Positions 14,879 through 50,095 of a stretch of DNA of 64,000 nt are shown in pieces. Source of the DNA: a virus; the IMG/VR virus record IMGVR_UViG_3300025030_000090, positions 4,754 through 68,753 of that record; one strand, given 5' to 3'. Made by a program: the position numbers and the translations under genes. The notes below the pieces were generated by a model. That model had not been told where the DNA came from. It searched no databases and worked only from the letters and a program-made list of their open reading frames with translations. Position 1 is the stretch's first letter; each line of letters opens with the position of its first letter.

Positions 14879-14987
14879 ATCATTAAATTTAGTAGGCTGG
14901 CCCAGGATACTCCAACCAAGATGCCCATAGCCAGAGCCATCCCTGTTCCAATCAGGGCAAGCCTGAACATTCTCCGCTCGGTAGGGG

Positions 14988-15969: not shown

Positions 15970-16118
15970 GGCCTAATCTTCTTCATCGCCGCTTCCAGGA
16001 GCCTGACCAGATGCCGTAATTCCCTCTCCAACCTGGTCGCGGGCTGGTCGTCTCACCCTATCCTCCTTTCACCTATCCGGAAATTCCGGATAACTGGCTC
16101 CCCCACTGTTTTTTCTGA

Positions 16119-22276: not shown

Positions 22277-22539
22277 TTATCTTCCTCATACTTTTCGGCA
22301 AACTCTGAAGAGTTTAGTATTTCATATCCTTCTCTAAACTTTACAACCCAATTTCCTGGGCAAACAATATGTCCACCTTCTAGTGTTATTATCCAACCAT
22401 GTTTGCACATTGACTTATAGCAATGCTGACAGGGTACTGTGTTTTCACCATATGGGTCATAGTCATGAACTTGTGGGTGGTCACCTGTCCTAAACCATTG
22501 AGATGCTTCTATGACTACTGGTTTTTTGACGAATTTCAT
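22270..22539 (-). CDS. conserved phage protein (KKPVVIEA type)
   Basis: KKPVVIEASQW...I.TLEG.H.V.PGNWV. Confidence 0.72.
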   Translation of the reverse strand: MKFVKKPVVIEASQWFRTGDHPQVHDYDPYGENTVPCQHCYKSMCKHGWIITLEGGHIVCPGNWVVKFREGYEILNSSEFAEKYEEDKC

Positions 22540-31634: not shown

Positions 31635-33872
31635 TTACACATTTAATGCATCATCAAATTCTGGCATAGATTTTATTGGTGGCTTGTTTTCCTTATCAAA
31701 TTCTTGTGCAAGTCGTAAGATTTCGTCTTTAGAAATGTCTCCAAGTTCTCCAGCATCTCTATCAGCCCTATTGTTTACTATTATATATTCTCTAAACTCG
31801 TTAGAATCATATTTAGGGTTTTGGCGAATGAATTTGTGGTAGAATCCATTGCTGAAGCCTGTGTGTTTTTCATGCAGCGATTTTTGAAACAATTCCAAAG
31901 CGCTTTTCTCTTCATTTTCTTCGGAATCATCTTCTTCTATTTCTTCCCAATCTTCTGGTTCTTCATCATATTGAATAGAATCAAGCCATTGGTTAAATGG
32001 AGTGTTGGATTTTACTAAAGAAGCAAACTGCGGAAACTTTGATGTGAAGATTTCTGGAGAGATATAGCTTGAAAGTGCGACAGAACGAGTGTTACCTAGC
32101 TCTTTTGAAACAATGTCCCCTATTTGGAATCTGAATTTTTTGAATTCTTTCTCGTTTGTAGGGGGTGGTAATTGTTGGATCACCTCATGGGCAATTCTCG
32201 TGCCTAGATGTGTGCGAAAATCTTTAGGAGAAAATTTGTGTCCTGAAATTCCACCCAGGTACTTTCTTACTTCATAGTCATTCACTTTGAACAATGGTTT
32301 TTCTTCATTTTTCTTTTTACGTGCAAGCAAAGCAGCTATTTTTGGGTCTTTGATTTGTTTCTGTATATGAACACCCTTTTTGCCGATGAAATCAAATGAA
32401 ATACTATCACCATTTATTTGAACATGTTTTCCTAATAAAGTAGAAACTCCATACGCTTTTACTTTGGCTAGGGTTTCATCATTGCTACCTATTCTAAACC
32501 CTGTTTTTGAGATAATATACAACACTAGCGCTTCTTCTGATTTTGATACATCTTTGGAAATTCTCTGTTCAATACGAGGAAGAACTTGGGCAAAGGCTTT
32601 CACCCTTTTGAATTTTGCGGCTGTATGCTTCTTAGAATGTTCAGCAGAATACAGATATTGCAATCTTCCTTTTGAGTCTTGTCCAATTGCTTGCAATGGG
32701 GAATTTTTGCTTTTTGCTACAAGAACATTCTGCCAGTTTGGGGGAATTCTAGAACCAGAAGGAGAAATATTTTCACCTCTCTTCTTTTGTCGCATTTCGG
32801 GATAACGATCTTGATACGGATTCACATACACAGTTCTTGTTCTTGGGAAGGTTTTTCCTTCTCTATGGACAGTTTCTTGTATTTGTTTGGGAACTAGGTT
32901 TGTATTATTTGCTTTTTTAATTTCACTAGTTTTTACTTCAATGTTTTCTATCCAGTTAGGGGGGACTCTTCTTGTCATGGCTACGTATGTCCCAAGTAAG
33001 TTATTGGTTGGATGTTTAAGCAAAATGATTTGTTCAACACTTAACTTATCGGACCAACCATATGTCATAGAATCAGGCACAAGTTGATTGATATATTGTT
33101 TAGGAACTCTGAATTTAACGATAGTTTTTATCTTAGTATTTACAAAATTGCTTGGTTCTCCTATTGAGGCAAAATTACTTTCTTCAATAAGTCCTCTAGT
33201 TTGTACTGATTCTTTTACATTTCCAGGAGATTCGTGATATAATATTATCCCATTATTAACTTCTGATATACGCCTTAATCGCCCCAAAAATGTTTTTTCA
33301 GCTGCTTCCGGTGTTCTAATATTTTCTGGAAGGCTGTTTATGAAGTTCTGGTCTATTTCATCATCAAATTCTGGTATTTTATAGGTTGTTTTTGAAGGGT
33401 CTTGATTTTTAGATCCCAAAGGTTGTCGGATATTATGTGTAGTAAAATATTTTTGGTGATCTATTACTCGTACTGGGTGTTCTGGAAAGTTATCATGTTT
33501 GTGTTTCCAGGATTCTTTTTTAATTTCTTCATTATTGCGTTGTTGTAAACTTCCAGAGTCTTTCTCCCCGCTATTTTCATCCTCAGCTTTTTCTTCTTCT
33601 CCCTTTTCTCCCATTTTGAATTCTGGTAGTAGTTCTCTGTATCTATCTGTTCCTTCATCATCTTGATCCCATAGTCCTTCTACTCGTATTTGTTGGATAT
33701 TGTCTTCGATAACCTTTTTTGCATCATTGAGTTGCATTTCTTCAGAGACAGAAATTTCGGGTGAAGAAAGTTTCTCATTTATCTCATCATCCATTGCAAT
33801 AAGCTCTTTCAGATATCGTTTTATTGCAATATCAATAGAATGGTAGTTGGCATCAATTTCGGATATAGACAT
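31635..33872 (-). CDS. polyprotein: tag B + putative ART/KptA-like domain + tag A + DNA topoisomerase IB
   Basis: TopIB catalytic set TGFRIG, FIGKKG, KDFRT, LGNT..V...SYI; upstream LYHES..GL..VPPNWI domain. Confidence 0.85.
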   Translation of the reverse strand: MSISEIDANYHSIDIAIKRYLKELIAMDDEINEKLSSPEISVSEEMQLNDAKKVIEDNIQQIRVEGLWDQDDEGTDRYRELLPEFKMGEKGEEEKAEDENSGEKDSGSLQQRNNEEIKKESWKHKHDNFPEHPVRVIDHQKYFTTHNIRQPLGSKNQDPSKTTYKIPEFDDEIDQNFINSLPENIRTPEAAEKTFLGRLRRISEVNNGIILYHESPGNVKESVQTRGLIEESNFASIGEPSNFVNTKIKTIVKFRVPKQYINQLVPDSMTYGWSDKLSVEQIILLKHPTNNLLGTYVAMTRRVPPNWIENIEVKTSEIKKANNTNLVPKQIQETVHREGKTFPRTRTVYVNPYQDRYPEMRQKKRGENISPSGSRIPPNWQNVLVAKSKNSPLQAIGQDSKGRLQYLYSAEHSKKHTAAKFKRVKAFAQVLPRIEQRISKDVSKSEEALVLYIISKTGFRIGSNDETLAKVKAYGVSTLLGKHVQINGDSISFDFIGKKGVHIQKQIKDPKIAALLARKKKNEEKPLFKVNDYEVRKYLGGISGHKFSPKDFRTHLGTRIAHEVIQQLPPPTNEKEFKKFRFQIGDIVSKELGNTRSVALSSYISPEIFTSKFPQFASLVKSNTPFNQWLDSIQYDEEPEDWEEIEEDDSEENEEKSALELFQKSLHEKHTGFSNGFYHKFIRQNPKYDSNEFREYIIVNNRADRDAGELGDISKDEILRLAQEFDKENKPPIKSMPEFDDALNV

Positions 33873-36800
33873 TATTTCTCACCCACAAATAACCCAGGAC
33901 TGCTTGCTCGCAACATTTTCATTTGTGCCATAATATCAAGAAATTTTGCTTGTTCTGTAGGGTTGTCTTCGTACATATATGTATTTACAGTCACATCACC
34001 AGTTCTTGGGGAGCGAGCAATTCTTCCTTGGGCCTGGAGAAGGACACTCGCATCTTGAGGGTTTCCTAAAATATGCAAATGGTCTCCTGTTTGCAAATTG
34101 TAGCCGCTACTAGATTTATTATCTATAAAGATAACCCTCACATCTTTGTTTCTTCTGAATTCTTCTGCTCTTGCAGCCATTTCTTCCCCAGTCATGCTGG
34201 TAGTAGAAGCGGCAAGATTTTTTACTTGACTTTGTTTCAGGCCAAGCTCTTTGATGATGTCATTCACAGAATTTCTTTGAGTCCGACTATCTATAAAAAC
34301 CACATGTTTTTTGTTTGAATCTCTTTGCAAAGCAGTTTTTAGGGCTGTAAGTTTCGAATTGGTAGCGATTGGTCCATCATCAAGATTTTCAGTATGCTCT
34401 TGTTCTATTTCTGTTCTCGCAACTTTAGTAGCATTTTGTCCTAGATTTCTTTCCCAATTTTCAGAACGATGTAGCGGGTGATTAGGATTGCTTCTTACTT
34501 CATTTATGATTTCTTGTCTTCTGGTGGCGATTTTCTCAGCACTTTCTAATTCAATTTCTTTCTGATTTTGGACCTGATAATCTGTTTTTCTAACATTAAC
34601 ATTGTTATGGTTTACTTTCCAAGGAGGGGTAGAAAGTTTATCACCACTAATAAAAGGCCTGATGGTATGAAAGAACATGGAGCTCAATCCCGTGTCTTGC
34701 GCATTTGTCCCGCTGCCAAATCCTGAGTATACTCTTTGGAATGATGCTTTGCTACCAAGAGATTTTGTTTGAGTTGCCCATTTTATCAAATCATGCGCTT
34801 CAAGGGGGATTCTTCTCGCAGGAGTGGCTGTAAGCCCGATTCTATGGTTCACAGGAAGTCGCATTATTCTTTTGCCGTATTCTCCGATGTTTCCTGATTG
34901 TCCTCTTGCTTGAAGCTCTTGTGGCTCATCAACTACAAACCCATGAAATTTTTTGTTCCCCAATTGTTCATTTGTCTGCATCTGGGTGAGCATTTCAGAA
35001 GAACGTGCAGCTTCTCTGTGGGCAATTACATATACAGTTCCTGGTTTGCTATCAAGAAGAATATCATCTACTTTGTCTCTTGCAGTCCCATCTGGGATGT
35101 ATTCTATTTTCAAATTTGTGAACTTTTCTGCCTCTGATTTCCATTGCTCTCCTCTGCCTTTAGGAACAACCACAAGCCCTTTGTAATTAGGATCATCATT
35201 CATTTTATGAGCAAAAAACCCCAAAGCAGTGTTTGTCTTTCCAGCACCCGTGACTCTGGTAATCAACCCACCTCCATTTCCTAGAGGATTTTCTGTTGAA
35301 GGTTTTGTAGTTTCCAGAAGCCAATTTATATCATTTCTTTGTTCAAGACGCCATTTGTATGGTTGAGTTACTCCTGATTCGTCAGTAAATTCTTTCTTCC
35401 ACAAAGGAACGTCAAAATTTGATACAACAAGATTTCCCTTATCATCATATTCTGAACCAGAGGTATCAGTCTTTAGTTTTTCATATTTGTCAGAGATTTC
35501 TTTGTCTTGTTGAGTTTCAGTAATTAATTTTCTAAGAGAATCAAGTCCTACTTTCACAGAAATATTATCTGGGTCAGAGTTGTCTATGGTGTGATGTTTA
35601 TCTGAAAGTTTTAATCTTTCAGCAATTGCTTCTGCATCTTTTTGGTTATTTCCGGCATAAATGTGTATTATGTCATTCTTTGCCGTTTTTAGTTTTTCCA
35701 TTTGGTCGTAAAGTGTAGCAGATGCTTGTAAAGAGCCAATTGCAGCACCTATGTTTCTTTTTTGTTCCAAGAGATTTTTCATTTCCAATGAAGAAATTTT
35801 TATCTTGTCTAGAAGTTCGCCACTTCCTTTTTGTTTTTGGATTTCATTCCATTGATCTTTGAGCATTTTGTGTCTATCAAGGGCTTTTTTTTCAGTTGAT
35901 TGCTGATTTGTAGCATTGAAGTCCCTTAATTGTTCTACTGCTCTGGCATATCCTTCAGTAGATTTTGAATTTTCATGTATTTCATAGGCAACCATAGCCG
36001 TAGCAACTTCAATATTGGAAGCATCAATAAGTCTTTTGACATCTACTGTTTTCCCTAAAAATTGCTGTGCAAGAGAGGCAAGAGCAATAGAAGCTCCGGC
36101 ATTCAAATGGAATTTTAGAGTAGTATCTATTTTCTTGTCATCTCCTATGGCATCCATCAGGCTCTTTTTGTTGTTCCAGTGTTCCGCAGCAACCTCATAA
36201 AGAGCTATAGCAGTATTGTTTCTCAACCACTGGTCATAAGATTGCGTAGTTTTTTCTTCTAATTCCTCTATAGACATATCAGATTCTATAGATACCAGGT
36301 CTTGTCTCAATTGGGCAATAGTAGAAGGGGCAGCATCTACCATAGGAACTTTCTTAATAGCTCCTTTCTTTAATTCTGCTTCTTTTCTTTTGTCCCAATA
36401 TGATTTGACAGAATTGATAGCCTTCTTCAAATCTTCTTCGGATTTCAATTCAAGTTTTTCTATAGGAGCGATTTTTATCTCTGGAGCTTTTTCATCAGGA
36501 TTAGTTGGATTTTCGCCATCTTCAAGGATATTGTCTATTTGTCTGTCCATGTGATTGGCGACAGCACTATCCAATTGATTTTGATTCAAGTCTTTCAGTT
36601 CTTCAATATTCGGCATGGAAAGTTGAACGTCGCCAATTTCTTGAAGATCTTTTGATTCTTCTTGAATTATTTGCTCTGTATTTGCTTCGGAGCCAAGTTG
36701 TGAAAGCCGCTTGCCGATTTTTGCTACTACAAGTTGTCTTTCTCTTTGGACTTTTTCGCCAACTTTTCTATTGGCTGCTACAATTTGTCTTGTGATGGTA

Positions 36801-37351
36801 TCGGTAATTCTTTTTGCTTGCTCTTTGTCTTCTACAATCTTTTCTACGTAGTTCTGAATATCATCTTTTTGTTCTAGAAGCTGCTTTTTATCTACTTTTT
36901 TGATTCCAAGTGCTTCTTTCATTTCTTCTGCAGCTTTTCTGACTTCTACTCTGGACTCTTCTTCTAGTTCTTTTTTGGCTACAATGATAGGTTCATTATA
37001 TTTTTCAGCTTCTTTTGCTGTTTCTTCTAGTTCTACATCTCGCTCTGTTTTCTTTGGAGCACCGCCAAGAACTTGATGCCGACGAGCTTCAACCTCGGGA
37101 TCGAAATGTTGCCCGCCCCCAACTATAGCTAGGAGGTTGTCAGGCCTCTTTTGAATTAAAAGTTTTCTGTGGTGGAGCGGCGACTCAGGATCAGATACTG
37201 TAATCCAAGCTGAATCACCGACAGCAAGCGATTCGGCGTCAAACTTCCCGTCCTTCATAGGTGTGGGAACTGTAGCCTTGTTAAAAGATACAAATTCTTT
37301 AGAATGCTTTTTGCTGCCTAACATTTTCAATAGTTCTAAAAGCTTACTCAT
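33872..37351 (-). CDS. large coiled-coil protein with SF2 (SNF2-like) helicase/ATPase
   Basis: VTGAGKT, VVDEPQE, LTATP, SSGYNLQ, QAQGRIAR. Confidence 0.8.
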   Translation of the reverse strand: MSKLLELLKMLGSKKHSKEFVSFNKATVPTPMKDGKFDAESLAVGDSAWITVSDPESPLHHRKLLIQKRPDNLLAIVGGGQHFDPEVEARRHQVLGGAPKKTERDVELEETAKEAEKYNEPIIVAKKELEEESRVEVRKAAEEMKEALGIKKVDKKQLLEQKDDIQNYVEKIVEDKEQAKRITDTITRQIVAANRKVGEKVQRERQLVVAKIGKRLSQLGSEANTEQIIQEESKDLQEIGDVQLSMPNIEELKDLNQNQLDSAVANHMDRQIDNILEDGENPTNPDEKAPEIKIAPIEKLELKSEEDLKKAINSVKSYWDKRKEAELKKGAIKKVPMVDAAPSTIAQLRQDLVSIESDMSIEELEEKTTQSYDQWLRNNTAIALYEVAAEHWNNKKSLMDAIGDDKKIDTTLKFHLNAGASIALASLAQQFLGKTVDVKRLIDASNIEVATAMVAYEIHENSKSTEGYARAVEQLRDFNATNQQSTEKKALDRHKMLKDQWNEIQKQKGSGELLDKIKISSLEMKNLLEQKRNIGAAIGSLQASATLYDQMEKLKTAKNDIIHIYAGNNQKDAEAIAERLKLSDKHHTIDNSDPDNISVKVGLDSLRKLITETQQDKEISDKYEKLKTDTSGSEYDDKGNLVVSNFDVPLWKKEFTDESGVTQPYKWRLEQRNDINWLLETTKPSTENPLGNGGGLITRVTGAGKTNTALGFFAHKMNDDPNYKGLVVVPKGRGEQWKSEAEKFTNLKIEYIPDGTARDKVDDILLDSKPGTVYVIAHREAARSSEMLTQMQTNEQLGNKKFHGFVVDEPQELQARGQSGNIGEYGKRIMRLPVNHRIGLTATPARRIPLEAHDLIKWATQTKSLGSKASFQRVYSGFGSGTNAQDTGLSSMFFHTIRPFISGDKLSTPPWKVNHNNVNVRKTDYQVQNQKEIELESAEKIATRRQEIINEVRSNPNHPLHRSENWERNLGQNATKVARTEIEQEHTENLDDGPIATNSKLTALKTALQRDSNKKHVVFIDSRTQRNSVNDIIKELGLKQSQVKNLAASTTSMTGEEMAARAEEFRRNKDVRVIFIDNKSSSGYNLQTGDHLHILGNPQDASVLLQAQGRIARSPRTGDVTVNTYMYEDNPTEQAKFLDIMAQMKMLRASSPGLFVGEK

Positions 37352-37818
37352 TAGCGAAATCCGATATCATTTTTCGTATTAGCTCTTCGTTTTTCAAATC
37401 ATGTTCCCAAATAATCAGAGTCCCATATCCACTTTGTTTGAATAAAGAAATTCTTTCCAGGTCTTGATTGATTTCGTCTGCTGATTTCGGAAAACAAGTT
37501 TTGCAATTGTGGAAGTAACAACCATTGAATTCAATTAGTTTCTTCTCACTTTCATTCAAAAAGTCAGGATTCTTTCTATGAATCCAAAACGATCCATCAC
37601 CTACATATTTCCATCCCGAAGTAGAATTCTTAATGATTTCTAACAACTTAATTTCTGCGGAATTTGGATGTATAGAAGCGTTTTTGAGAGCTTTCTCGCA
37701 GCGTATATTTCTTTCTGAATCGCTCAATCTATCCCAACTCTTTTATTTTTCGTTTAGATCTTGGAAATATCGTTTCTCCACACCCACAAGCACAATATTT
37801 TATTTCCATGTTACTCAT
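37344..37818 (-). pseudogene. degenerate Vsr/DUF559-type homing endonuclease
   Basis: PDF..IEFNGCYFH..C..C, LIIWEHDL at 37344-37727; N-terminal CACGCG part (ATG 37818) is out of frame. Confidence 0.65.
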
Positions 37819-37885
37819 ATTCAAATCCTAGGAACCCAATTGTCTGGTTCGGGAAGTTTTGGGTCTTGAAAAAAATTCTTTTAGT

Positions 37886-38185
37886 TTATTCATCCTCTAT
37901 TTTCTCTGGATAATCTGCTTTTACATAAGTTCCATAAAGACAAAAATGAAGATTTTCTACAAGTTCTCTTCCGTCTTTCAAGGAAAGTCTCTTTCCTCTA
38001 GATCCATCTTTTTCTATTTTTACCAGCCCACGTTTTAGCATTTCTTCCAACGTTTCTGTGTATTCACCAACAATAGATATCTTATCTGTTTTGCTATCCC
38101 ACTCTACATTAGCGATTTCGCTATCATGGACATTGTATACTTTGGAAATGATTTTCATTGTTGTACCCTGTATCCTATATTCCAA
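37886..38185 (-). CDS. hypothetical protein overlapping the kinase 3' end (possible inhibitor)
   Basis: likely start MKIISKV overlaps the kinase stop. Confidence 0.55.
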   Translation of the reverse strand: MEYRIQGTTMKIISKVYNVHDSEIANVEWDSKTDKISIVGEYTETLEEMLKRGLVKIEKDGSRGKRLSLKDGRELVENLHFCLYGTYVKADYPEKIEDE

Positions 38186-39426
38186 TTAGGCTGTTGTTGG
38201 AGGAGGATGTCTGCCCGATACCGCATAGCTTCTGCTTGCATGCTGGAGATATAATTTCCTAATTTTTTTGCCATCACATCATCACTAATGTTAGAAATAT
38301 CTGACAATTTCTTTCTCCATTTATCTGGTATGCGTAATTTTCTTGCTCTCGCCTTATCATGTATAATTTGATATGAGGCAGTTACATATGGATATTTTGA
38401 GAAACTTCCCCCATTGTCTATTGCTATTATTCTGCCATTTTTTCCTAACAACCAATTTCCATCATGGCGATCGGGATTGTCTATAAGATAATCAAAAAGG
38501 ATAGTATCTATAAGATCTTCATCAGATAATTTGTTTGCTTTTGATGAACTGCCAATATCAGCATCTACAAATTGTTGTATGCTCCCATGTTTTTCGCCTA
38601 TGCTTCGCATAGATGTTGTAGGAACTATATCTAAATTAAGCATCTCTGACAAAAGAAAAGCAGACACTTCATACTTTGGTTCTCCATAAGCTGATTTGTA
38701 TTTGAAAACAGCTTTTCCATCATCTTCCAATTCAACAATTTCTGGGTTGTTAACACCCTTGCCAATTTTTTGTGATTTGGTTACGTTTCTTAAAAGAATC
38801 TCAACTGGGACATAATGTGTTTTTGGAGATTCTTTTGGTTTTTCTTTTTGGGGTTCTGAAGATGATTGCTGAACTGCATGTGTAGCAAAATATTTTATAT
38901 GGTCTATAACTCTAACTGGATGTTTTGGAAAATTATCATGTTTATGTTTCCAGTTCCCTTTTTCTATCAGAGGATTTTCCCCCACAAGTTCAGAAAGAAC
39001 ATCTCCTTCCAGGAGCATCTCTTCTTCTTCGCTTTTTATCATTCTAGAAAGTTCCCAAAAAGTGGAAATTTTCGCAGGAGTAGAAAAAAGGACTTCTGGT
39101 TTTATTAACCAAATGCTATTTCCATCTGTAATTGCTTTTTTGACTTCTATTCTAATTGTATCACCAGCTTCTGCTTTTATATCTGTAGGAGCAGTATACC
39201 CAGCATTCAAAACATGATGCCCATGAATTGCTCCTGATTGCTGCTTTTGAGAAACAATAGAAGTTTTTCCATCACCTAGTTTTTTAGGTCTTGAAGAAGT
39301 TACCCCAGCTTGTTGTCGAACCATTTCTTTTCTATAAAAGGGTCGTCCCATTTTAGGATGAACTAAAACAAGTTTTTGTGTCAAATTAGGATTAGCTTTT
39401 TTCAGGAATTCTTGAAGTTTGCTCAC
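38155..39426 (-). CDS. tag A + tag B + PI3/PI4-kinase-like (HipA/CtkA superfamily) kinase
   Basis: AVFK, EVSAFLLS..L.L..VP.T, GSIQQFV, FDYLIDNPDRHDGNWL, IAIDNG. Confidence 0.85.
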   Translation of the reverse strand: MSKLQEFLKKANPNLTQKLVLVHPKMGRPFYRKEMVRQQAGVTSSRPKKLGDGKTSIVSQKQQSGAIHGHHVLNAGYTAPTDIKAEAGDTIRIEVKKAITDGNSIWLIKPEVLFSTPAKISTFWELSRMIKSEEEEMLLEGDVLSELVGENPLIEKGNWKHKHDNFPKHPVRVIDHIKYFATHAVQQSSSEPQKEKPKESPKTHYVPVEILLRNVTKSQKIGKGVNNPEIVELEDDGKAVFKYKSAYGEPKYEVSAFLLSEMLNLDIVPTTSMRSIGEKHGSIQQFVDADIGSSSKANKLSDEDLIDTILFDYLIDNPDRHDGNWLLGKNGRIIAIDNGGSFSKYPYVTASYQIIHDKARARKLRIPDKWRKKLSDISNISDDVMAKKLGNYISSMQAEAMRYRADILLQQQPNWNIGYRVQQ

Positions 39427-39686
39427 TATCGCTTCAACCCGATTTTATACACGAATTGCCCATCTGGGAGTTCTTTCTTTTCTAGAATCTGAACATTGAT
39501 TCTTTCATCAATATTGACAGTTCTCCAATTTGAATCTTCTTTAGGGGCTTCTTTTTCGAGATTTTCTGGCTGTGAAATATCTTCCATACTTCTATTGTAA
39601 ACCTTTTCTATAGGGGTGCTATCATTTTTGTTTTCTTTTTGCTCCCATTGTATATCTGTTTCTTCCCAAACGAATCTATTTTTCAT
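39426..39686 (-). CDS. small acidic protein after ART (NxFxWExxDI N-terminus)
   Basis: overlaps the ART stop. Confidence 0.6.
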   Translation of the reverse strand: MKNRFVWEETDIQWEQKENKNDSTPIEKVYNRSMEDISQPENLEKEAPKEDSNWRTVNIDERINVQILEKKELPDGQFVYKIGLKR

Positions 39687-40398
39687 TTATCAAAAGCTCC
39701 AATACTATTTGGTCATTTTCTTTAGATACTTTGAATCTACTATTGCGAGGAAGGAGTATTTCTTCTTCTTTCTGTGAAGATGTTCCAGCTGCAAAATCTA
39801 AAGGAATTACTTTTGTTCCTTTTGGTATTTTTATTAATATCAGTTTTCCAAATTTTTGGGCAATATTTGCATTTGATGTGGTTGATAAAAACCCATTATC
39901 CGTAAAAATCCGTCCTATGTTAGCATCAAGATGTTCATATATTTTTGTGTCACTTCTTATCCCTCTGAACAAAAACATATTTTCTGAAGTTAGAGGGACT
40001 TTTTGGAATGCTTTGTCCATTGTTAAGATTTGTTGTTTTAATTCTTCTTCACTTGTAGGACTTCCAGAGATCAGAATACCATTTCTAAGTAGCAAATTGA
40101 TTGGTCTGCTGCCAAATTCTTTATAATTTTGTAGTACTTGTTTTTCATTTGGGCTCAGTAGTTTTTCTATGTCCTCAAAACCTTTTCTTGGCCGAACCCA
40201 TCTAATAGACCAATATGGCTTTTTCTCCCAAGTGCTGGGAATGATTTGTACTTTTTTGGGTACTAATCCTTCTCTTGCTTTTTCTAGAAAATCTTCAAGT
40301 TTTGAAGAGGGGGTAGTTATATACCTCTTTTGTTCCAAACCCCTCTGTTTTGAAGAAAAAGTGATTTTTTCAGATAGGGATTTTTTGATTTTTAGCAA
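39676..40398 (-). CDS. tag A + VIP2/C3-like (R-S-E) ADP-ribosyltransferase
   Basis: IN.LLR, LFRG, FLSTT, KEEEILLPRNSRF. Confidence 0.88.
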   Translation of the reverse strand: MLKIKKSLSEKITFSSKQRGLEQKRYITTPSSKLEDFLEKAREGLVPKKVQIIPSTWEKKPYWSIRWVRPRKGFEDIEKLLSPNEKQVLQNYKEFGSRPINLLLRNGILISGSPTSEEELKQQILTMDKAFQKVPLTSENMFLFRGIRSDTKIYEHLDANIGRIFTDNGFLSTTSNANIAQKFGKLILIKIPKGTKVIPLDFAAGTSSQKEEEILLPRNSRFKVSKENDQIVLELLINEK

Positions 40399-40423
40399 AG
40401 TATCCGTCCTCTAAAACTTTGAA

Positions 40424-43400
40424 TCAATCGTCCATTTGTACCCATTTTGCAGGCTTTGATTCTTTTGCCATAACAAGAAATTCTCTTTCATTTTCGTTAT
40501 ATGAATGTGCGTAATAGAAAGACCAAATATCTTCCCTTTTTGTTTTTATTTGCAACGTTATATTCCCAAAATTTTTTGCCTTATAATAAGAATGAGACCA
40601 GGAAGATAAAGCATCTTGATTTAGAAGCACTGGGACATAAGAGTGAGTTCCGCTGTACCCAACAAGCTTCGGTTTTCTCTTTACTTCATTAAGACTTGTT
40701 CCTCTATATAAAGTGATGAATTCGTCTTCTTCATTCTTTTTCGGAAATGCTTCTGCCAGAATTCTTTGCGTTAAATCATAATGAATTCTAACATATTCAT
40801 CTATCTCTTTTCCGCCTAGTCTGAATCGCATTTCTTTTACTTGTCCTTCCATCTTATCTGTGAATCTTGGATGGGCATATGTTTGTTTTTGAATTATTCT
40901 AGAAACTGCTTCTTTTATAGTATACGCATCCATAGAAGTAGAAGATACTGCCCAACCCTCTTTCAACGTTTCATGTATGAATTCATATGGCGTCCCTTTA
41001 TAGAGTTCATCTACAATTTGCACCATCGTTTGCGAAGGACCTTTATTAGAAGTTAGTTGTCCGATGTATTCTTTGAATTTGTCAGATAGTTTTTCAGGCA
41101 ATTTCCAGGTTCTATGGAATTCATCTATGAATTTTTCCCCAAGAATATTATCTCTGATTAGGCTTCTAATTTCTATTTTTCCTCGTTCACCTGTGCTCCA
41201 ATTTGAAATATTGTGGTTTTTCATGTGTTTCCCAATAAGTTTTCTGACAAACAAATATTGAGCATCTTCATCGCTTGAATGTTTCTCATAAAATTCTTGA
41301 AAAACATTTCCATTACTTCTTGATACAGAATCAAGAAAAGTTTTAGGAGATACTTCTTTTATGTTTTCTAGTATCTCAAGAGTTATCTCTTTGTTTGGTA
41401 TTCTTTTTGAAACTGTTTCTTTTACGAATATATCTCTATCTTTTGTTAATTTTTTCAGGATTCGTATATTTCTTATTTTACCAGCTACAAGTTCTCTGAT
41501 TCTCGCAGAGCTATCATCTGCTAACATTTCCAGAATAGGTTGTAAATCTCTTTCATAAGCCGCCGAAGCTGCCAAAAAACGTTCTGTTTCATTTGGCGAT
41601 TCTACCCATTTGATAAATGTGTCTATAGCTTTGTGTTCTTCTGGGTTAACATATATAGTTCTAGTTCTTCTGAATGGTGGGCCGTCTTTGGGGTGAACTA
41701 TCTCATGTATCTGTTTAGGAATTTTTCCTCTGGTTTCTCTTTTTTCCAGTTCATTGTCAAAGAACTTTCTAATAACTTCCTCAAAATCACCTAAAAACAA
41801 ATCATCAAGTTCTTCTTCTGAAACCCATTTGTAGCTAGAATGCTCCTTGTTTAACTTGATCTCTCCAGAAATTTCCACTTTGTAGAAAAGAACTGGATGT
41901 TCGTCCTTTCCTATCTCTGTTTCCCCAGAAATGTCAAATTCTTCTATGTCTTCTACTTTGCAGTTTATCTCTTCCTGAAGTTCTCTTCGCAGCGCTTCCT
42001 TTGCGTCCTCTTTTTGGTCGATGTGGCCTCCTGGGAGGTCGTATGGAAATTTAGAATTGGTAGGATTATGAAGTAAAAGCAATCTTCCTTCTTCATCCAG
42101 TATCAATGCTTTTGCAGAAATAGGAAGGTTTGCTTTTTCTATTTTGTCCTTTGTTTCTATCTTTCTTGTTTCGGGATTAAAAGTTGCAGCAGAATCCAGT
42201 TGCCAACCTCCGGAACCATCTGGAACTATAAGATTCTTTGGAATTCTGAAAGAATAAACTTGGCTATCTTCTGGGTAATCTACATCCCTGCCTTGAGCAT
42301 AACTTCTATCAGTAGCAAAGAATTTTCCTTTAGGAATTTCTTCTCCAGAAACCCATTTTTCATATTCTTTAGCACTCATGTCTCTATAAACACGAATAAG
42401 TTTTGGTTCTTTTCCTTGGTGTAGAGAAATAAAACTAGGAAAATATCCCACATTGGATTTCCATTTCGAATAATCTGGTTTCCCATAAAGCATTTCATAT
42501 ATTGTTTTGACTTGTCCAAACATGCTTTCTTGAATGTCTTTTCCATTTTCTTCAGCTTCTTCGAATGAGGACAGGTCATCTCCATCCCAAAAATCTACTT
42601 CCCCGTCATCACCTATAGAAATTTGGGCCGAAGAAGTATATTTGGAATTTGGCATCTTTTGATGAATAACCATTCTGATGTCAAAATTATCTTCCATTTT
42701 ATCATAGTCAGGAAAGTCAGAATACATAGGCGGAAGAAGTTCAATCTTCGTCATCAAAAAATCTTCCATTCTGTGAATGTGGGCTTTTAGTTTTTCGAAT
42801 GTTTCTTTTCCGAATTGGTGAAAAAGAACATAATCAATAGCATTTTGTCTGTCTTCTTTTTCCCAAAACTCCCCTATGTCTTTGTTCTTTCTATAGCTGG
42901 CCCAGTCGTTGGTATCATGTCTTTCCATCCCTAGAGAGAACCAGACTTGTCCAGGGGAATAATTTGTAATTGGCTTTCCAAAAATTAGAGTTTCTTCCCA
43001 TTCTGGTTTGTTTTCTATATGGGATTCTTCCGCTTCTTCTTTTGCTTCTTCAGGAGAAACCCATCGAATACCCCAAAATGTTTTTCCTTGCTGATGGATC
43101 TGCACCTTTTTAGGAATAAGGTTTGGATTTGAATCAGATTTTTGAATTTCTTCTTTCTCTTGTATTGCTTTTTCGGGGTGGAAAACTACAAATTCAGCAC
43201 CTCTTTGTATTCCGAATTGTGTTTTTCTGGGTTCATTTGTTAGAATAATTCCATCATATCCTTGATTCTCTAGCTTCTGTCTTATAAGCTTGCTTTTTTG
43301 CTCTAATTTTTCGGTCAAAGAACCTTTGAAATTCGCCAAATCTTTGGAAACTAGCTCATCTATATCTCCAGGAGTTCTTGGGACATAGGGTTTTTGCAGA

Positions 43401-45505
43401 TGCAAATGATGCTGTTGGACATCACCATATCCTTCAGCAATTTGCTTATGGGAAGAAAAATAAGTTCCTTTTCCCCACATTCCTTCATCTACAGGTGTAT
43501 GTTTTCCAGTTCCTCTCCATACAATGCCTTGAAATGGTTTTCCATGTTCGATTCCCTTTGCTTCATGAACATCTACATTATAGGGATTGTCTTGCTTCGG
43601 GAGATTGGAAAAATATTCTTGATGGTGTTCTACGGCAACAGGGTGTTCTTGCCAGCCATCATGCTGATGATATGCAACCCTAGCCTTCTCAAAATCATCC
43701 CCGAAGTATTCTTCTGCTTCTTTCTTTGTAGGTGGCCCTTCAGACCATTTTTTAGAAGCAAGGCCATACTTTAGTTCTCTTTCGGAAACAATGTCATCAT
43801 CAGCTTCTTTTTCTTTTCTAAAGGCATTTCCGTGGGGAGTACAAAAATGGGCTGTGGCCATCGCTTCGGCCCAAAGAAATTCTACTGTGGGTGACATGCT
43901 GCATTTCATGCATTTGCTTCTGCTGTAGGCTTTTGTTAAATCTGACTTTGAAAGATACTCAGAATAGTTATCTTTTACATATTGCAATGCTTGGTCTGGA
44001 GTAGAAAATTCTCCTTCCTCTTGCTTTTCTCTAATCTCTTTTATGACTTTGCCCATCATTTTGCTCGGAGGAAGTCCTATAGAAATAAGATCGTCACCTG
44101 TAACAAGCGGAGGAATTTTGCCTTCAGAAGTCATTACTCCAATCTTGCCTTTAACTTCTTGAAGCTTATCTCTAAACCATGAGCTTTCATTTCTTGAAGC
44201 AGGTTCTGGCTCCCCATCTTCTTTTCGATGTAATCTTCCAGTAGTATCTGCTTCAGAAAAGTCAGCAAGAAGGTTGAGTTTGTCTATTCCATGTTTGTTG
44301 ATTAGTCTTTTGAAGGCAGATTCTGGAACTTTTTGTCTCCAAAAGGCAGTCGGAATGCCATGATTTGCTACTAGGAAAAGAACCCTTTCAACTATTTCTT
44401 CATTATTTGTAAGTCTTGATAGGAATTTTTTAGTTGGATCTATTCCTAATTCTTCATGACCATGTTGAGTGATTTTTCCATCTTCTTCTTTTGTAGCATC
44501 AGGTTTTCCGAAATCGTGTGCAATAGAAGCAAGCATTAAAGCAAGCTTGTCTTTCTCATTATCATATTTTTTGATGATTTCAGCAGACTTGTCCATAACC
44601 ATACGAATATGGTTGTATACAGAACCTTCAAAATGAAAGTCTCCCCGTTGTTTTGTAGTTTTCAGCACGAAAATTTCTGGCCAATATCTCTTCAGCACAT
44701 CCATATCATCAAGAGCTTCTAATCCAATAGACGGCTTTTTTGAACGAAGAAGAAGCTTTTTGAATTCCTCAAAGATTCTTTCAGACGGAAGATGTGACAA
44801 ATCTATTGTAGAAGCTAAATCTACTGTTTCTGGAGCAATAGAAAAACCAAAGCGGGCAGCAAATTGTGCTGCACAATACACCCTCAGTGAATCTTCCTGA
44901 AATGTTTTATCATTTACGTGACGAATAACACCATTTTTTAGATCTTTTATCCCGCCAAAATGATCCAGGATCTTCTTTTTTTCTAGATCGTAATAAATTG
45001 AGTTTATGGAAAAATCACGTCTTTTTGCAGCCGTTTCTGTGTCCAAATAAGGATCTGACTCTACTTCGAAATCGGTGTGTTTCTCCCCTATCTTCTTTTC
45101 TTTTCGAGGCAAGGAAATATCAAAATCGGTTCCTATTTTGAATACACCAAATTGCTTTCCTACTTGTTCACTTTTTCCACCCAGTTCTTCTACTATTTCT
45201 CCAAGTCTTTCTTTTGGAATATCATAAACTTCGATATCAAAATCTTTTACTGCTTTTCCTAGAAGAGCATCCCGCACACTACCACCGACAAGATATGGTG
45301 TTCCATATTTTGTAAGTGTGGATGTTATTCTTTCAAAATCTGGATGTTGAAAAAATAAGGGAGAGGTTTCTTCTTCTGAAGAGACCATGATAACACGATC
45401 TCTCTCAAAAGTAGTTCCTCCTCTGTGAACTACCTCATGTATTTTCTTGGGAACTAAATTGGGGTTAGTCATCTTCTTGTGAAAAATTTCCCTTGTATAA
45501 GACAA
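40424..45505 (-). CDS. polyprotein: CCA-adding/HD tRNA nucleotidyltransferase, two ART-like domains, NUDIX hydrolase and C-terminal R-S-E ART, separated by tags
   Basis: LVGGSVRD/DFDIE/RRDFSIN/EDSLR, IAHDFGK; VWRGTG..GTYFS..YDGI; GGHIDQKEDAKEALRRELQEE; LYRG/LSSWS/NEREFLV; true start likely ATG 45472. Confidence 0.88.
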   Translation of the reverse strand: MSYTREIFHKKMTNPNLVPKKIHEVVHRGGTTFERDRVIMVSSEEETSPLFFQHPDFERITSTLTKYGTPYLVGGSVRDALLGKAVKDFDIEVYDIPKERLGEIVEELGGKSEQVGKQFGVFKIGTDFDISLPRKEKKIGEKHTDFEVESDPYLDTETAAKRRDFSINSIYYDLEKKKILDHFGGIKDLKNGVIRHVNDKTFQEDSLRVYCAAQFAARFGFSIAPETVDLASTIDLSHLPSERIFEEFKKLLLRSKKPSIGLEALDDMDVLKRYWPEIFVLKTTKQRGDFHFEGSVYNHIRMVMDKSAEIIKKYDNEKDKLALMLASIAHDFGKPDATKEEDGKITQHGHEELGIDPTKKFLSRLTNNEEIVERVLFLVANHGIPTAFWRQKVPESAFKRLINKHGIDKLNLLADFSEADTTGRLHRKEDGEPEPASRNESSWFRDKLQEVKGKIGVMTSEGKIPPLVTGDDLISIGLPPSKMMGKVIKEIREKQEEGEFSTPDQALQYVKDNYSEYLSKSDLTKAYSRSKCMKCSMSPTVEFLWAEAMATAHFCTPHGNAFRKEKEADDDIVSERELKYGLASKKWSEGPPTKKEAEEYFGDDFEKARVAYHQHDGWQEHPVAVEHHQEYFSNLPKQDNPYNVDVHEAKGIEHGKPFQGIVWRGTGKHTPVDEGMWGKGTYFSSHKQIAEGYGDVQQHHLHLQKPYVPRTPGDIDELVSKDLANFKGSLTEKLEQKSKLIRQKLENQGYDGIILTNEPRKTQFGIQRGAEFVVFHPEKAIQEKEEIQKSDSNPNLIPKKVQIHQQGKTFWGIRWVSPEEAKEEAEESHIENKPEWEETLIFGKPITNYSPGQVWFSLGMERHDTNDWASYRKNKDIGEFWEKEDRQNAIDYVLFHQFGKETFEKLKAHIHRMEDFLMTKIELLPPMYSDFPDYDKMEDNFDIRMVIHQKMPNSKYTSSAQISIGDDGEVDFWDGDDLSSFEEAEENGKDIQESMFGQVKTIYEMLYGKPDYSKWKSNVGYFPSFISLHQGKEPKLIRVYRDMSAKEYEKWVSGEEIPKGKFFATDRSYAQGRDVDYPEDSQVYSFRIPKNLIVPDGSGGWQLDSAATFNPETRKIETKDKIEKANLPISAKALILDEEGRLLLLHNPTNSKFPYDLPGGHIDQKEDAKEALRRELQEEINCKVEDIEEFDISGETEIGKDEHPVLFYKVEISGEIKLNKEHSSYKWVSEEELDDLFLGDFEEVIRKFFDNELEKRETRGKIPKQIHEIVHPKDGPPFRRTRTIYVNPEEHKAIDTFIKWVESPNETERFLAASAAYERDLQPILEMLADDSSARIRELVAGKIRNIRILKKLTKDRDIFVKETVSKRIPNKEITLEILENIKEVSPKTFLDSVSRSNGNVFQEFYEKHSSDEDAQYLFVRKLIGKHMKNHNISNWSTGERGKIEIRSLIRDNILGEKFIDEFHRTWKLPEKLSDKFKEYIGQLTSNKGPSQTMVQIVDELYKGTPYEFIHETLKEGWAVSSTSMDAYTIKEAVSRIIQKQTYAHPRFTDKMEGQVKEMRFRLGGKEIDEYVRIHYDLTQRILAEAFPKKNEEDEFITLYRGTSLNEVKRKPKLVGYSGTHSYVPVLLNQDALSSWSHSYYKAKNFGNITLQIKTKREDIWSFYYAHSYNENEREFLVMAKESKPAKWVQMDD

Positions 45506-45884
45506 TCATATCATTATCAGGAAACTTCTCACAAACAAAATCAGGATAACTTTTTTTTATATCTTCTATTGTTTGGTTTTCTTTCAATGGGAAAATATGG
45601 GCAACAAATTGTTTTGCTATTCTACAACTATCTCTGATGATTTTCTCTTGGTTGTCCATATTTCGAAGAACATTGTACGAAAACACAGAATCAAATTCAT
45701 CATCCTCATACGGAAGCTTGTTTCCTAATTCTATATCACAAATAGAAGAAGTAGATTTTTGAAGCACTTCCAATGAGTCTGATTGTTTTATTTCTAAAAT
45801 AGAGCTTCCTGGAATAGAAAGAAGAAATTTTTCTAATCCGCCTAAAAAATAAATATCCTCTTTCTCCCAAGCAAATTTATTCAT
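45465..45884 (-). CDS. NxFxWExxDI peptide fused to a degenerate class I SAM methyltransferase fold
   Basis: SILEI (no GxG), LPYEDDEFDSVFS..VL. Confidence 0.6.
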   Translation of the reverse strand: MNKFAWEKEDIYFLGGLEKFLLSIPGSSILEIKQSDSLEVLQKSTSSICDIELGNKLPYEDDEFDSVFSYNVLRNMDNQEKIIRDSCRIAKQFVAHIFPLKENQTIEDIKKSYPDFVCEKFPDNDMIVLYKGNFSQEDD

Positions 45885-46584
45885 TCATTATCCCTGTCCA
45901 CTGATATACAGGCACCCCATTTTGATCTGCTACCCACTTAAAAATCGAATTTCTTGGTATGATCACCTCTTCTTCGTCTGATTCGGTTACAGTATCAGGT
46001 ACATGAAGTGCTGAGGCTCCTTTTGGTATTTTTATTGCAATAGTTTTATAATCGTCAAATTCCAATTCCTGTATCCGACTATTTAGGGATGTAGAAACAA
46101 ATCCTCTGTCTACAAAAGTTCCTTTTGGAAAGCTAACATTTATAGCTCTAAAGCATGTGATACTGAATGGTAGAATACTTTTTGAAATTGCTTTGTCCAT
46201 CACATCAATTTTGTACGCCAATGATCCTATTGTATATGGTGCGGCAGTTAATTTTATATTTTTGTTTCTCAAAGATCTATTTATTTCTTTATACCCGTTT
46301 ATCTGATAGTCATTAATAACAACCTTTTCTTTTTCAAGCAAAGCATTATATGCAATTATCAATTCTTTTTCAATTTGCTTTCTTGTAGATCTTGAATATG
46401 GTAAGGAAAATTTTTCTTTTTCTTCTGGGTTCACCATCACAGTTCTTTCACGAGGAAATACTTTTCCTCCACGATGTACTTCTTCGTGAATCTTTTTGGG
46501 AATGAGATTAGATTTGTTTAATTCCAGAAATTCTTGTAATTTTCCCAATTGGAAATTATCCCCAAATTGTTTTTTGCCAGTCAC
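45877..46584 (-). CDS. tag A + VIP2-like (R-S-E) ADP-ribosyltransferase
   Basis: Y..IN.SLR, CFRA, FVSTS, DEEEVIIPRNS. Confidence 0.86.
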   Translation of the reverse strand: MTGKKQFGDNFQLGKLQEFLELNKSNLIPKKIHEEVHRGGKVFPRERTVMVNPEEKEKFSLPYSRSTRKQIEKELIIAYNALLEKEKVVINDYQINGYKEINRSLRNKNIKLTAAPYTIGSLAYKIDVMDKAISKSILPFSITCFRAINVSFPKGTFVDRGFVSTSLNSRIQELEFDDYKTIAIKIPKGASALHVPDTVTESDEEEVIIPRNSIFKWVADQNGVPVYQWTGIMNE

Positions 46585-47179
46585 TCTCTACAATTTGGTC
46601 TACAATACCATAATCTACTGCTTCTTTCGGAGAAAGCCAAAATTCTCTATCAATGTCTTTGTCAAGCTGTTTTCTATCTCTAGTGATCCCATTATTCATC
46701 AAAATGCCTATATATCTTTCCTCAAGGCGCTCTATTTCTTTTTGCTGTTTCTTGAGCTCTTTTACATCACCTTCTGTTCCGCCAGAGATTAAATGCATCA
46801 TCACCCTGCCATTCGGAATGATAAATCTCTTTCCTTTTTGTCCTGCTGATAGAATGGCCACAGCAGCAGAGCAAGCAAAAAGCCCAACAGTATAAACAGG
46901 AGAGCGAAGCATCTTTATGGTATCGTGGAGAGCAAAGCAGTCATCTAGCTCTCCCCCACCACTGTCTATTATAAGAGTAATAGGCTCATCAGAAATAGTG
47001 TCCAAAGCAAGCATATGGTCTCTGGCAACCCAACTTGCAAACTGATCTTGTCGCATAGGGAAGCCCGTCATTACAGAGTAAAAGAAAATAGTTCTTTTTT
47101 GTTCCAAGAAATATTCATAAATAGAAGCATAGTACTTGTTGTCTTGAGTTCCCTTTGGCCGCTGAATCATCTTCATCAT
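46556..47179 (-). CDS. clpP: ClpP-family protease subunit
   Basis: IDSGGG, ACSAA (Ser), MMH (His), DREFWLSPKEAVDYGIVDQI. Confidence 0.9.
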   Translation of the reverse strand: MMKMIQRPKGTQDNKYYASIYEYFLEQKRTIFFYSVMTGFPMRQDQFASWVARDHMLALDTISDEPITLIIDSGGGELDDCFALHDTIKMLRSPVYTVGLFACSAAVAILSAGQKGKRFIIPNGRVMMHLISGGTEGDVKELKKQQKEIERLEERYIGILMNNGITRDRKQLDKDIDREFWLSPKEAVDYGIVDQIVESDWQKTIWG

Positions 47180-49204: not shown

Positions 49205-50095
49205 TTATTCATCTTCTATGCCCAAATCCATTGTCTTAAAAAATCCAGGAACTCCTTTCCATCTATTTGTTTTGTTTTCGACCTCATTCATAGAATTACT
49301 TCTAGAGATCCCGCACTTTTGATTGTAAAAATCATGTTGAATTCCTACTGGTTTTCCGAAGTCTTGAGATTGGTGTTGCCACATAAATAGAATTTCGGGC
49401 CACGCCATCGGGTTTTGGTTGTTTCTCCATATTGAGATGTATTTGGAAGTAGGAGAAGGAAAATTGTTCCAAAAATAATCATATTTGTATCTATCTGGAT
49501 CCAAAGACCAAGCAATCAATTTTCCAGCGGTCGAAAAAGATCCTACTTCTGTTCTTGTTATAAGCTGCAATCTATTTCGCACTTTCTCCAAATAGTCAAC
49601 AATTTCATTCTCAAGTTGCTCTTTATTCAGTGTATTATTGATATTATATGAGTTTGCAATGATTTTTTGTATCCTATTGAGTACTTCTTTTCGTAGTTCT
49701 TGGAATTTTGGCTCCATTCTATTGGGATCATTCACCATTATTTCTAATCTTTGTTCAAAATCTTCCATATTTGGCTTTGCATTTGATTCTGCCAGCCCAG
49801 CATAAAATCCCCTACGAAGAAGCTCTTTATCTGTTTCTTCCACGCCTTCATACATTCTTCTTCGCCAAGCATCAATGGCATTTTCCAGCTTCTGGGAAAC
49901 TTCATATTGAAACTGGCTTTCATCTACTTCCTTCAGAGCATTCCACAATCTTTTTTGCAGTCCAGAATACAGCCTCTGCTCTATTTGTTTTCCAAGGACT
50001 TTTGTGCCTTTAGGAAATTGTCCCGTCAGGATCAAACCAGATTTTTGGATAGAAGAATCAATAGCATCATAGAAACTGTCAGAAGAAAAATCCAT
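49205..50095 (-). CDS. MuF/gp7-like head morphogenesis protein
   Basis: position after portal; RLQLITRTEV motif. Confidence 0.55.
   Translation of the reverse strand: MDFSSDSFYDAIDSSIQKSGLILTGQFPKGTKVLGKQIEQRLYSGLQKRLWNALKEVDESQFQYEVSQKLENAIDAWRRRMYEGVEETDKELLRRGFYAGLAESNAKPNMEDFEQRLEIMVNDPNRMEPKFQELRKEVLNRIQKIIANSYNINNTLNKEQLENEIVDYLEKVRNRLQLITRTEVGSFSTAGKLIAWSLDPDRYKYDYFWNNFPSPTSKYISIWRNNQNPMAWPEILFMWQHQSQDFGKPVGIQHDFYNQKCGISRSNSMNEVENKTNRWKGVPGFFKTMDLGIEDE

Follow-up and report, generated by a model that had tools for sequence, protein, structure and literature searches.

What does a small basic motif do that recurs seven times in five genes of a single phage? The question arose from a stretch of 64,000 nucleotides (the window), bases 4754-68753 of the 68,753-bp linear IMG/VR virus record IMGVR_UViG_3300025030_000090, which is rated 78% complete. 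A sequence-only reading of the window had drawn attention to a motif of ~28 amino acids (aa), Tag A, said to stand ahead of an effector domain each time, and had suggested that it forms a basic beta-hairpin serving as an address for packaging or ejection. The seven peptides that it quoted were all present in the minus-strand translation, at most 3 nt from where they had been placed. We found that Tag A is an autonomous and portable mini-domain of ~45 residues with a family of its own, and we propose that it may mark enzymes as cargo of the phage head.

The genes of interest are all on the minus strand, and the seven copies are spread over five tagged genes (Table 1). These are separate open reading frames (ORFs) with starts of their own, placed between the portal and ClpP-type protease genes and the gene of an XkdF-like protease. 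We built a profile hidden Markov model (HMM) from 83 instances, all of them outside the window and on other contigs, and ran it on the six-frame translation of the window. This external HMM recovered exactly seven of the seven copies with domain E-values from 3e-17 to 2.3e-6; the next match had an E-value of 1.9 and the best match in five residue-shuffled sets one of 0.059. The profile of the seven copies detected no eighth copy in the six-frame translation (next match, E 0.03), and scanning all 68,753 bp of the record with a profile yielded just 7 matches. At identical residues, third-codon identity among the four long-form copies (defined below) was 0.14-0.50 with synonymous sites saturated, indicating that the copies are old and that conservation is on the protein level and not due to recent DNA duplication. 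Five of the seven share N-L in place of G-L. Where the copies stand in their proteins agreed only in part with the earlier description. A Pfam catalytic domain begins 2-29 residues after the tag in four of seven cases (the type IB topoisomerase (TopIB), both exoenzyme-type ADP-ribosyltransferases (ARTs) and the CCA enzyme), while for the other three the next 180-400 aa had no Pfam match. Moreover, four copies, not one, are no more than 45 residues away from an ORF start.

Tag A consists of an amphipathic helix followed by a basic, two-stranded beta-hairpin. The helix has the consensus K-L-x-[ED]-F-L-x-K (also given as K-L-x-[ED]-[FW]-[LI]-E-K); it precedes the hairpin, and the conserved unit begins ~14 residues earlier than the ~28-aa motif first described, which makes it ~45 aa long. 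An xxK-x junction had been listed as a feature apart from the motif. It is not separate, because its lysine, found 2-6 residues upstream of the hairpin in no fixed register, is part of the tag helix itself, at its E-K-[QA] end. AlphaFold2 (AF2) was run on a 35-row alignment for the tag of ART_235, giving a 65-residue model in which residues 8-25 of ART_235 form the helix and residues 28-38 and 41-51 the two strands. The predicted local distance difference test (pLDDT) score was 94-95 for the hairpin block, with a mean of 76 for the model and a predicted template modelling score (pTM) of 0.42. Members of the family are of either a short or a long form, the latter with 2 extra residues in strand 1 and 2 in strand 2. 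Among 107 complete instances, 75 had neither insertion, 32 had both and none was mixed, so that the paired indels provide independent support for the hairpin. The model, the 107 of 107 paired indels and an isoelectric point (pI) of 10.0-11.3 for the tags thus bear out the prediction of a basic beta-hairpin around a central turn. Near-invariant positions of the profile are L, V, K, V, V, G, F, V and P, and seven positions hold a basic residue. One face of the hairpin has a hydrophobic stripe flanked by conserved basic positions, a near-invariant P-E-E comes after the second strand, and most of the window tags are followed by an acidic stretch.

When we searched 1.84 billion representative proteins with the seven-copy profile, 83 clusters were found at E<=1e-3. 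Four of these were the window's own and two were artefacts (P0018 and P0070, discarded as repetitive translation artefacts), leaving about 77 that were foreign and real. We counted 110 instances in 86 proteins: 67 proteins had one copy, 15 had two, three had three and one had four. A further search added 29 proteins, one of which (P0091) had five copies. The spacing between tags in multi-copy proteins was about 300-450 aa. Among the 67 single-copy proteins the tag was in the first 60 residues in 48 and C-terminal in 5, the latter all of 70-189 aa and probably fragments; of all 110 instances, 51 start beyond residue 60. The shorter related motif G-[LG]-V-F-D-x-x-K-H-R-W-V-x-P was seen in two copies in P0004 and at aa 595-618 of P0090, and looks like a truncated version of the hairpin.

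Most of the tagged proteins found were without a known domain, and the remainder had very diverse partners. The enzymes included exoenzyme-type ARTs, ART-PolyVal, DRAT, TopIB, PI3/4-kinase-like proteins, the CCA enzyme with HD, NUDIX, M90/ATLF-like metallopeptidases, DUF192, HAD, SNF2/Sbno helicase, DNA ligase and RadC, and further partners were RelA/SpoT, ParB, Zeta toxin, 2H, HNH, InPase, LPD1, DUF6582 and DUF5661. MuF, a lambda-type portal and the S78 and XkdF prohead proteases were found as head-protein partners. InPase, LPD1, ART-PolyVal (63.8 bits), RelA/SpoT, 2H and ParB are signature domains found only in polyvalent proteins. Some tagged relatives carry MuF or M90/ATLF-like peptidases, and MuF co-occurred with the tag in 2 of the 65 tagged proteins scanned (P0061 and one more). 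The tag is not intrinsic to the window enzymes, since it is fused to such diverse neighbouring domains; with more than 25 unrelated Pfam families as partners and no Pfam or PHROG model covering it, the possibility of an intrinsic enzyme subdomain, raised together with the original observation, could be set aside.

We then compared Tag A with known families. In Pfam searches no model covered the tag in the whole proteins, and the isolated tag segments at E<=10 matched no family in six of seven cases and gave one WHH match (E 0.11). None of the Pfam LPD models matched the tag even at E<=10, and matches to PHROGs were on the enzyme parts only, with the tag uncovered. A Foldseek search of the PDB with the AF2 model gave no match at E<=0.001; the top matches (PhiC31 integrase and others, E about 1) were rejected as meaningless for a 65-residue model. 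The only hit of a sequence profile search against the PDB was ribosomal protein S5, which was not significant (E 0.6), and the best scores in the ESM Atlas, 0.76-0.77, were under 0.8 and did not reach the level of a lead. Precomputed Pfam labels of a newer release were blank ('-') for tag-only proteins. The literal motif strings were not found in the literature searched, and the hairpin, packaging and LPD passages of PMC5512222 and PMC9503650 do not contain this motif, which the supplementary domain files could hold. As far as we searched, Tag A is undescribed.

To place the tag in its genomic context, 23 loci were fetched from viral, genome and metagenome collections with subfamily alignments. 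Several adjacent tagged ORFs on the same strand were found again, with six copies on five ORFs in L009, five on four in L013, three on three in L014 and, depending on the E-value cut-off, six to seven copies on four to five ORFs in L011; related contigs had 3-6 tagged ORFs each. A portal gene of the window type lay immediately upstream of the tagged genes in L006, L007, L008, L010, L011, L014 and L019 and downstream of them in L012. In the more distantly related loci L009 and L017, the latter from a Spirochaetales metagenome-assembled genome (MAG), the upstream portal was of the PF04860 type. The terminase and portal genes of the window are 4-9 kb upstream of the tagged genes on the same strand, and this synteny is kept in the related loci. 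Locus L014 has the order terminase, portal, 279-aa protein, three tagged genes, protease, 267-aa protein and major head protein; its 279-aa protein is a homologue of the 296-aa protein of the window and has a weak 'head morphogenesis' match. Homologues of the XkdF-like protease come after the tagged genes in L011 and L014. In scans of whole records, the 7 tags of the 68.7-kb record spanned 13.7 kb and the 3 tags of a 90-kb record spanned 4.3 kb, three other viral records had 5, 5-6 and 5 tags in one region each, and a 4.4-Mb Spirochaete MAG had a single tag, located on a phage-like contig. When 185,579 species were scanned, each represented by one genome, only two loci were confirmed, and tblastn searches of 72,556 plasmids with three tag variants gave no match at E<=0.1. 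So far, Tag A is restricted to phages, whose hosts include Thermus, Bacillus, Spirochaetes, Gammaproteobacteria and candidate-phyla bacteria. The mean identity of tags was 0.33 within contigs versus 0.23 between contigs, a value that 0 of 2000 label shuffles reached, and 13 of 50 tags had their nearest neighbour in the same contig; this within-contig similarity is confounded by shared ancestry. Idiosyncratic residues are also common to copies of one contig, such as DPKKGxYYATRYV in 5 of 5 copies of P0091 and QVTRGGKTFEQTVY in L011.

The tag was also found in cultured phages. Thermus phage Lalka27a has one tag at ~aa 85-121 of a 2074-aa DarB-like protein, after which comes a Ulx-like gene; the section of the phage's description that deals with these two proteins puts forward their packaging as a hypothesis, by analogy with P1 (PMC11437467). 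In Bacillus phage YungSlug (Herelleviridae) a tagged 254-aa protein (37 bits) is encoded directly after the terminase gene. Weak homologues of this protein in Enterococcus and Bacillus phages are labeled '(virion) structural protein' in 9 of the 29 other records listed, by annotation only, and no proteomic source for 'virion structural protein' was found in the literature searched. The hairpin of the Herelleviridae homologues is divergent and not significant by HMM (Goe8 E 0.012, EFDG1 E 0.29). In Enterococcus phage EFDG1 (L032, 5854-6699) and Bacillus phage Goe8 (L033, 5842-6726) the 'virion structural protein' gene directly follows that of the terminase large subunit, and the protein combines a C-terminus weakly similar to GNAT with the divergent stretch K-L-[VK]-P-V-K-R-x-V-M-R-N-G-K, which resembles the hairpin. 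A tblastn search of cultured phages with the long-form window tag gave no match. Matches in Mycobacterium phages were discarded, as they lay on the strand opposite tape-measure genes with E-values of 0.06-0.1.

Based on these observations, we favor the reading that Tag A is a cargo-marking domain of head-packaged, injected effectors, which would dock in the procapsid and work like the capsid-targeting sequences (CTS) of T4 and P1. We put its probability at roughly 45%. What favors it is the restriction to phages, the head-proximal block, the polyvalent partner domains, the mostly N-terminal position and the precedent of T4 and P1. The function of a packaging or ejection address, as initially suggested, is likewise consistent with a portal-adjacent block, mostly N-terminal tags and their absence from the plasmids scanned. 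The tag would dock its effector unit on the interior of the assembling procapsid, at the scaffold or core, the inner surface of the coat, the portal region or else a MuF-like protein. The enzymes would thereby be enclosed before DNA packaging, to exit together with the DNA upon infection. Copies inside polyproteins would result from the fusion of tag-plus-enzyme units, and might also be handles near the sites where a head protease separates these units. Encapsidation of the tagged proteins, their docking, the receptor and any cleavage are what we infer and not what we observed. For polyvalent proteins of this domain set, packaging into capsids has been predicted in the passages on packaging by Iyer et al. 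2017 (PMC5512222), where the largest share of polyvalent proteins is that of conjugative elements.

T4 and P1 already exemplify a shared tag on phage head cargo; new here are the form of Tag A, its breadth and its internal repetition. The leader of the T4 internal proteins is about 10 residues long. Like Tag A, the T4 CTS (IPI, IPII and IPIII) is common to otherwise unrelated proteins of one phage (five here); it is N-terminal, as are many instances of Tag A though not all. The N-terminal tag helices of the window are similar to the T4 leader: in the T4 record IPII and IPIII start with MKTYQEFIAEA and kin_423 starts with (M)SKLQEFLKKA, 5 of 11 residues being identical in the same register, a stretch too short for statistics. 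The T4 CTS is confined to T4-like phages, whereas Tag A spans phages with unrelated portals and is a folded domain of ~45 aa with internal repeats, whose best-conserved part is a beta-hairpin absent in T4. Encapsidation and cleavage were demonstrated for T4 and are putative for Tag A. Encapsulin cargo-loading peptides are also short shared tags and load diverse enzymes into an HK97-fold shell; these are unfolded, mostly C-terminal and belong to cellular nanocompartments, and they have no known sequence relation to Tag A. The tagged polyprotein P0004 has a rubrerythrin domain with a sub-threshold EncFtn-like match. According to the account of T4 internal proteins in PMC3012670, the CTS is the only conserved element among diverse anti-defence proteins and directs them into the prohead scaffolding core. 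For P1, the first 30 residues of DarB, a 250-kDa anti-restriction polyvalent protein, suffice for loading a reporter into the capsid, and the sections of the same report on Dar N-termini state that the authors found no consensus among them (PMC9024508). The DarB-like protein of Lalka27a has Tag A near its N-terminus, and Tag A is, unlike the P1 Dar N-termini, a strongly conserved family. The MuF domain (PF04233), taken as a mark of head packaging in the relevant passages of PMC5512222 and PMC9503650, resembles Tag A in being fused to many different effector domains and encoded beside the portal gene, but it is a larger and unrelated domain; Tag A is not simply its replacement, since both co-occur in some proteins. 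The domains LPD1-LPD40 (Iyer et al. 2017) are, like Tag A, uncharacterised and found only in polyvalent proteins, and Tag A shares proteins with LPD1; they differ in that no Pfam LPD model matches it.

Several points weigh against a cargo mark. Tags are ~50% identical across phages with different portals (phrog_18178 type, PF04860 and PF05136), and they cross morphotypes, having been seen in a Thermus myovirus, in an SPO1-like myovirus and in an SU10-like capsid context. A tag addressed to head proteins, which evolve fast, ought to have diverged further, and its conservation therefore favors a universal ligand, DNA for instance. Some tags are in proteins with a domain that is itself incorporated into the head (the lambda-type portal of P0048, the prohead proteases of P0004 and P0090 and the MuF of P0061 and of one more protein), in which a targeting signal looks redundant, and targeting would not require as many as 5 copies per protein. 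In addition, profile searches detected no major capsid protein gene anywhere in the window of this 78% complete record, and it is from gene position that we infer the window proteins to be virion components. It is possible, if doubtful, that Tag A is a folded cargo-loading domain working across unrelated portal and capsid families by binding what all heads share, either the packaged DNA or some conserved trait of the HK97-fold interior. In that case its sequence could serve as a general marker of injected anti-defence effectors in metagenomes, and it would be a handle, ready for use, by which diverse phage capsids could be loaded with foreign proteins. MIX/FIX-type markers serve likewise for secretion-system effectors. 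Phages inject proteins with their DNA to disarm bacterial defences, and outside T4, P1 and MuF fusions this cargo lacks a sequence rule; a tag for cargo units would permit the systematic discovery of injected effectors and would explain the build of large polyvalent proteins from tag-plus-enzyme units.

A universal ligand is also what a nucleic-acid-binding beta-ribbon would have. With dsDNA (or RNA) in the grip of the basic hairpin, each effector unit would travel on the phage genome in the capsid and on entry, or be kept at its nucleic-acid substrate, and the tag would have no part in encapsidation as such. The strong conservation across phages with unrelated portals and capsids fits this, as do the basic pI of all seven copies, the conserved basic positions beside the hydrophobic stripe and the many partners that act on nucleic acids (TopIB, CCA enzyme, DNA ligase, SNF2/DarB-like helicases, ParB, HNH and 2H). 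One tag per polyprotein unit fits one anchor per enzyme, and lysines of T4 internal proteins contact packaged DNA according to the part of PMC3012670 that treats them. A generic DNA binder, however, would be expected in replication, repair, regulatory and cellular genes too, whereas the tags of six whole phage records are in one head-proximal block and the one copy in a 4.4-Mb bacterial genome is in a phage region. A domain that binds DNA would not be expected to show the N-terminal bias (48/67), many partners have targets other than DNA (protein ARTs, kinase, metallopeptidase, NUDIX and RelA/SpoT), and the Foldseek and PDB profile searches showed no likeness to a solved DNA-binding fold. Head-proximal confinement and N-terminal bias argue against a generic DNA-binding domain and are compatible with a ribbon that tethers cargo to the packaged genome. 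On balance we consider the beta-ribbon, the main rival reading, unlikely.

Very unlikely, in our view, is that Tag A is a processing handle, beside which a head protease of the ClpP or the XkdF/S78 type cuts, separating the units and removing leaders. A folded 45-residue domain with paired-indel conservation far exceeds what a cleavage site needs, the protease type varies between loci while the tag is constant, and the xxK-x junction is without a fixed register. Still, the tags stand between polyprotein domains and at the N-termini of single-domain proteins, two head proteases flank the tagged block of the window, and the near-invariant P-E-E comes after the hairpin; the P1 capsid protein is cut after Glu (E120/S121) according to its processing section (PMC9024508), and polyvalent proteins were argued to be cut into units in the pertinent passages of Iyer et al. 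(PMC5512222). Tags in polyproteins with a prohead protease (P0004, XkdF; P0090, S78) or a portal (P0048) also fit processing, as release of an effector from them would need cleavage. An action after injection, with the tag as an element for docking or oligomerisation to a host structure or to other effectors, or as a mere structural spacer, appears quite unlikely as well. The acidic, low-complexity flanks are linker-like, the tag is on enzymes with very different substrates, and there are contig-specific shared residues (P0091, L011 and the N-L of the window) along with the higher identity within contigs. This similarity is, however, confounded by ancestry, with no more than 13 of 50 nearest neighbors in the same contig. 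A common host protein target is unlikely for hosts from Thermus to candidate-phyla bacteria, the lack of tags in the plasmids scanned speaks against a general post-entry role, and a passive spacer would not retain 10 or more near-invariant positions.

Table 1. Copies of Tag A in the window and genes of the surrounding block
Feature	Window position	Strand	Core	Evidence or remark
Tag A copy 1 (helix and long-form hairpin), N-terminus of ART_235	46402..46551	-	46426-46509, aa 26-53	HMM; AF2 model
Tag A copy 2 (long form), N-terminus of poly_1693, 29 aa before CCA/PolyA_pol	45362..45496	-	45380-45460, aa 16-42	HMM, Pfam
Tag A copy 3 (short form), internal in poly_1693 (aa 781-823), right after ART-PolyVal	43025..43168	-	43052-43123, aa 795-818	HMM, Pfam
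Tag A copy 4 (long form), internal in poly_1693 (aa 1247-1293), right after NUDIX	41621..41767	-	41642-41725, aa 1261-1288	HMM, Pfam
Tag A copy 5 (short form), ART_240, 2 aa before ADP-ribosyltransferase domain	40165..40308	-	40189-40269, aa 44-70	HMM, Pfam
Tag A copy 6 (short form, most divergent), extreme N-terminus of kin_423	39289..39426	-	39316-39387, aa 14-37	external HMM E 2.3e-6
Tag A copy 7 (long form), internal in TopIB_745 (aa 311-359), 24 aa before TopIB N-domain	32793..32942	-	32817-32900, aa 325-352	HMM, Pfam
ART_235: tag and exoenzyme-type ADP-ribosyltransferase	45877..46584	-		Pfam PF03496 E 3.2e-19
poly_1693: polyvalent protein with 3 tags, CCA/PolyA_pol+HD, ART-PolyVal, NUDIX and unannotated C-terminal 400 aa	40424..45505	-		Pfam, PHROGs
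ART_240: tag and exoenzyme-type ADP-ribosyltransferase	39676..40398	-		Pfam PF03496 E 1.8e-22
kin_423: tag and PI3/4-kinase/Fam20C-like kinase	38155..39426	-		Pfam PF00454 E 2.2e-6
TopIB_745: unannotated N-terminal half, tag, type IB topoisomerase	31635..33872	-		Pfam PF01028 E 1.9e-22
SNF2_1159: helicase of the block without hairpin; N-terminus resembles tag helix (weak lead)	33872..37351	-		Pfam
ClpP-type head maturation protease, immediately upstream of first tagged gene	46556..47179	-		Pfam PF00574 E 7.9e-39; phrog_94
Portal protein (815 aa)	50737..53184	-		phrog_18178; homologues directly upstream of tagged genes in 7 related loci (BLASTP synteny)
296-aa head-module protein	49205..50095	-		homologue fused to portal in L011, to tagged 999-aa protein in L013
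XkdF-like second head protease, downstream end of block	27651..29354	-		phrog_23555 E 1e-14; PF14550 E 4e-4, below its cut-off
Terminase large subunit	54041..55699	-		phrog_2 E 2.3e-41

In the direction of transcription, the block starts with the genes for the terminase large subunit, the portal, the 296-aa protein, a 396-aa metallophosphoesterase-like protein, two small ORFs and the ClpP-type protease. ART_235, a small methyltransferase-like ORF, poly_1693, ART_240, an 86-aa ORF and kin_423 follow, and then two small ORFs, SNF2_1159, TopIB_745 and, farther on, the XkdF-like protease protein; the proteases on the two sides of the effector block are of different types. Several unrelated effector domains are joined in one polypeptide in poly_1693, where the ART-PolyVal match (31.2 bits) is exactly at the cut-off, and TopIB_745 and kin_423 have extra unannotated domains. 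Pfam gave no match to MuF or to a zincin metallopeptidase (MPTase) in the five tagged proteins of the window. The start of SNF2_1159, M-S-K-L-L-E-L-L-K, is like the N-terminal tag helix, with no hairpin following; a helix-like start in the first 30 residues was seen in 3 of 95 minus-strand ORFs, all in the block, with ~0.7 expected by chance. The 396-aa protein, a calcineurin-like phosphoesterase (phrog_284, 'exonuclease'; 48006-49196, minus strand), is within the head module, a position conserved in L015/L023 and L020, and is possibly a cargo enzyme without a tag. The portal has an insert at ~aa 303-420 that matches PHROGs of thymidylate synthase and ribonucleotide reductase. The portals of related loci, of 553-611 aa, lack this insert, which is therefore probably intein-like.

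A few further features of the window were noted. No tRNA genes were found in the whole window. The GC content is 0.51 at 14001-16000 versus 0.35-0.47 in the rest of the window, and the ribonucleotide reductase gene (59730-62696, minus strand) has an HNH-endonuclease insert. The genes for a ribose-phosphate pyrophosphokinase and a NAMPT-type nicotinamide phosphoribosyltransferase (21503-22276 and 22536-23996, minus strand) form an NAD+ salvage pair, in a phage that also has four ADP-ribosyltransferase domains and a NUDIX domain. Finally, a second motif, W-K-H-K-H-D-N-F-P-[EK]-H-P-V-R-V-I-D-H-x-K-Y-F, is found on the minus strand at 33408-33527 (TopIB_745, ~aa 121-150), at 38851-38970 (kin_423, ~aa 158-190) and, as a divergent copy, at 43574-43693 (poly_1693, ~aa 610-640), in no fixed order relative to Tag A.

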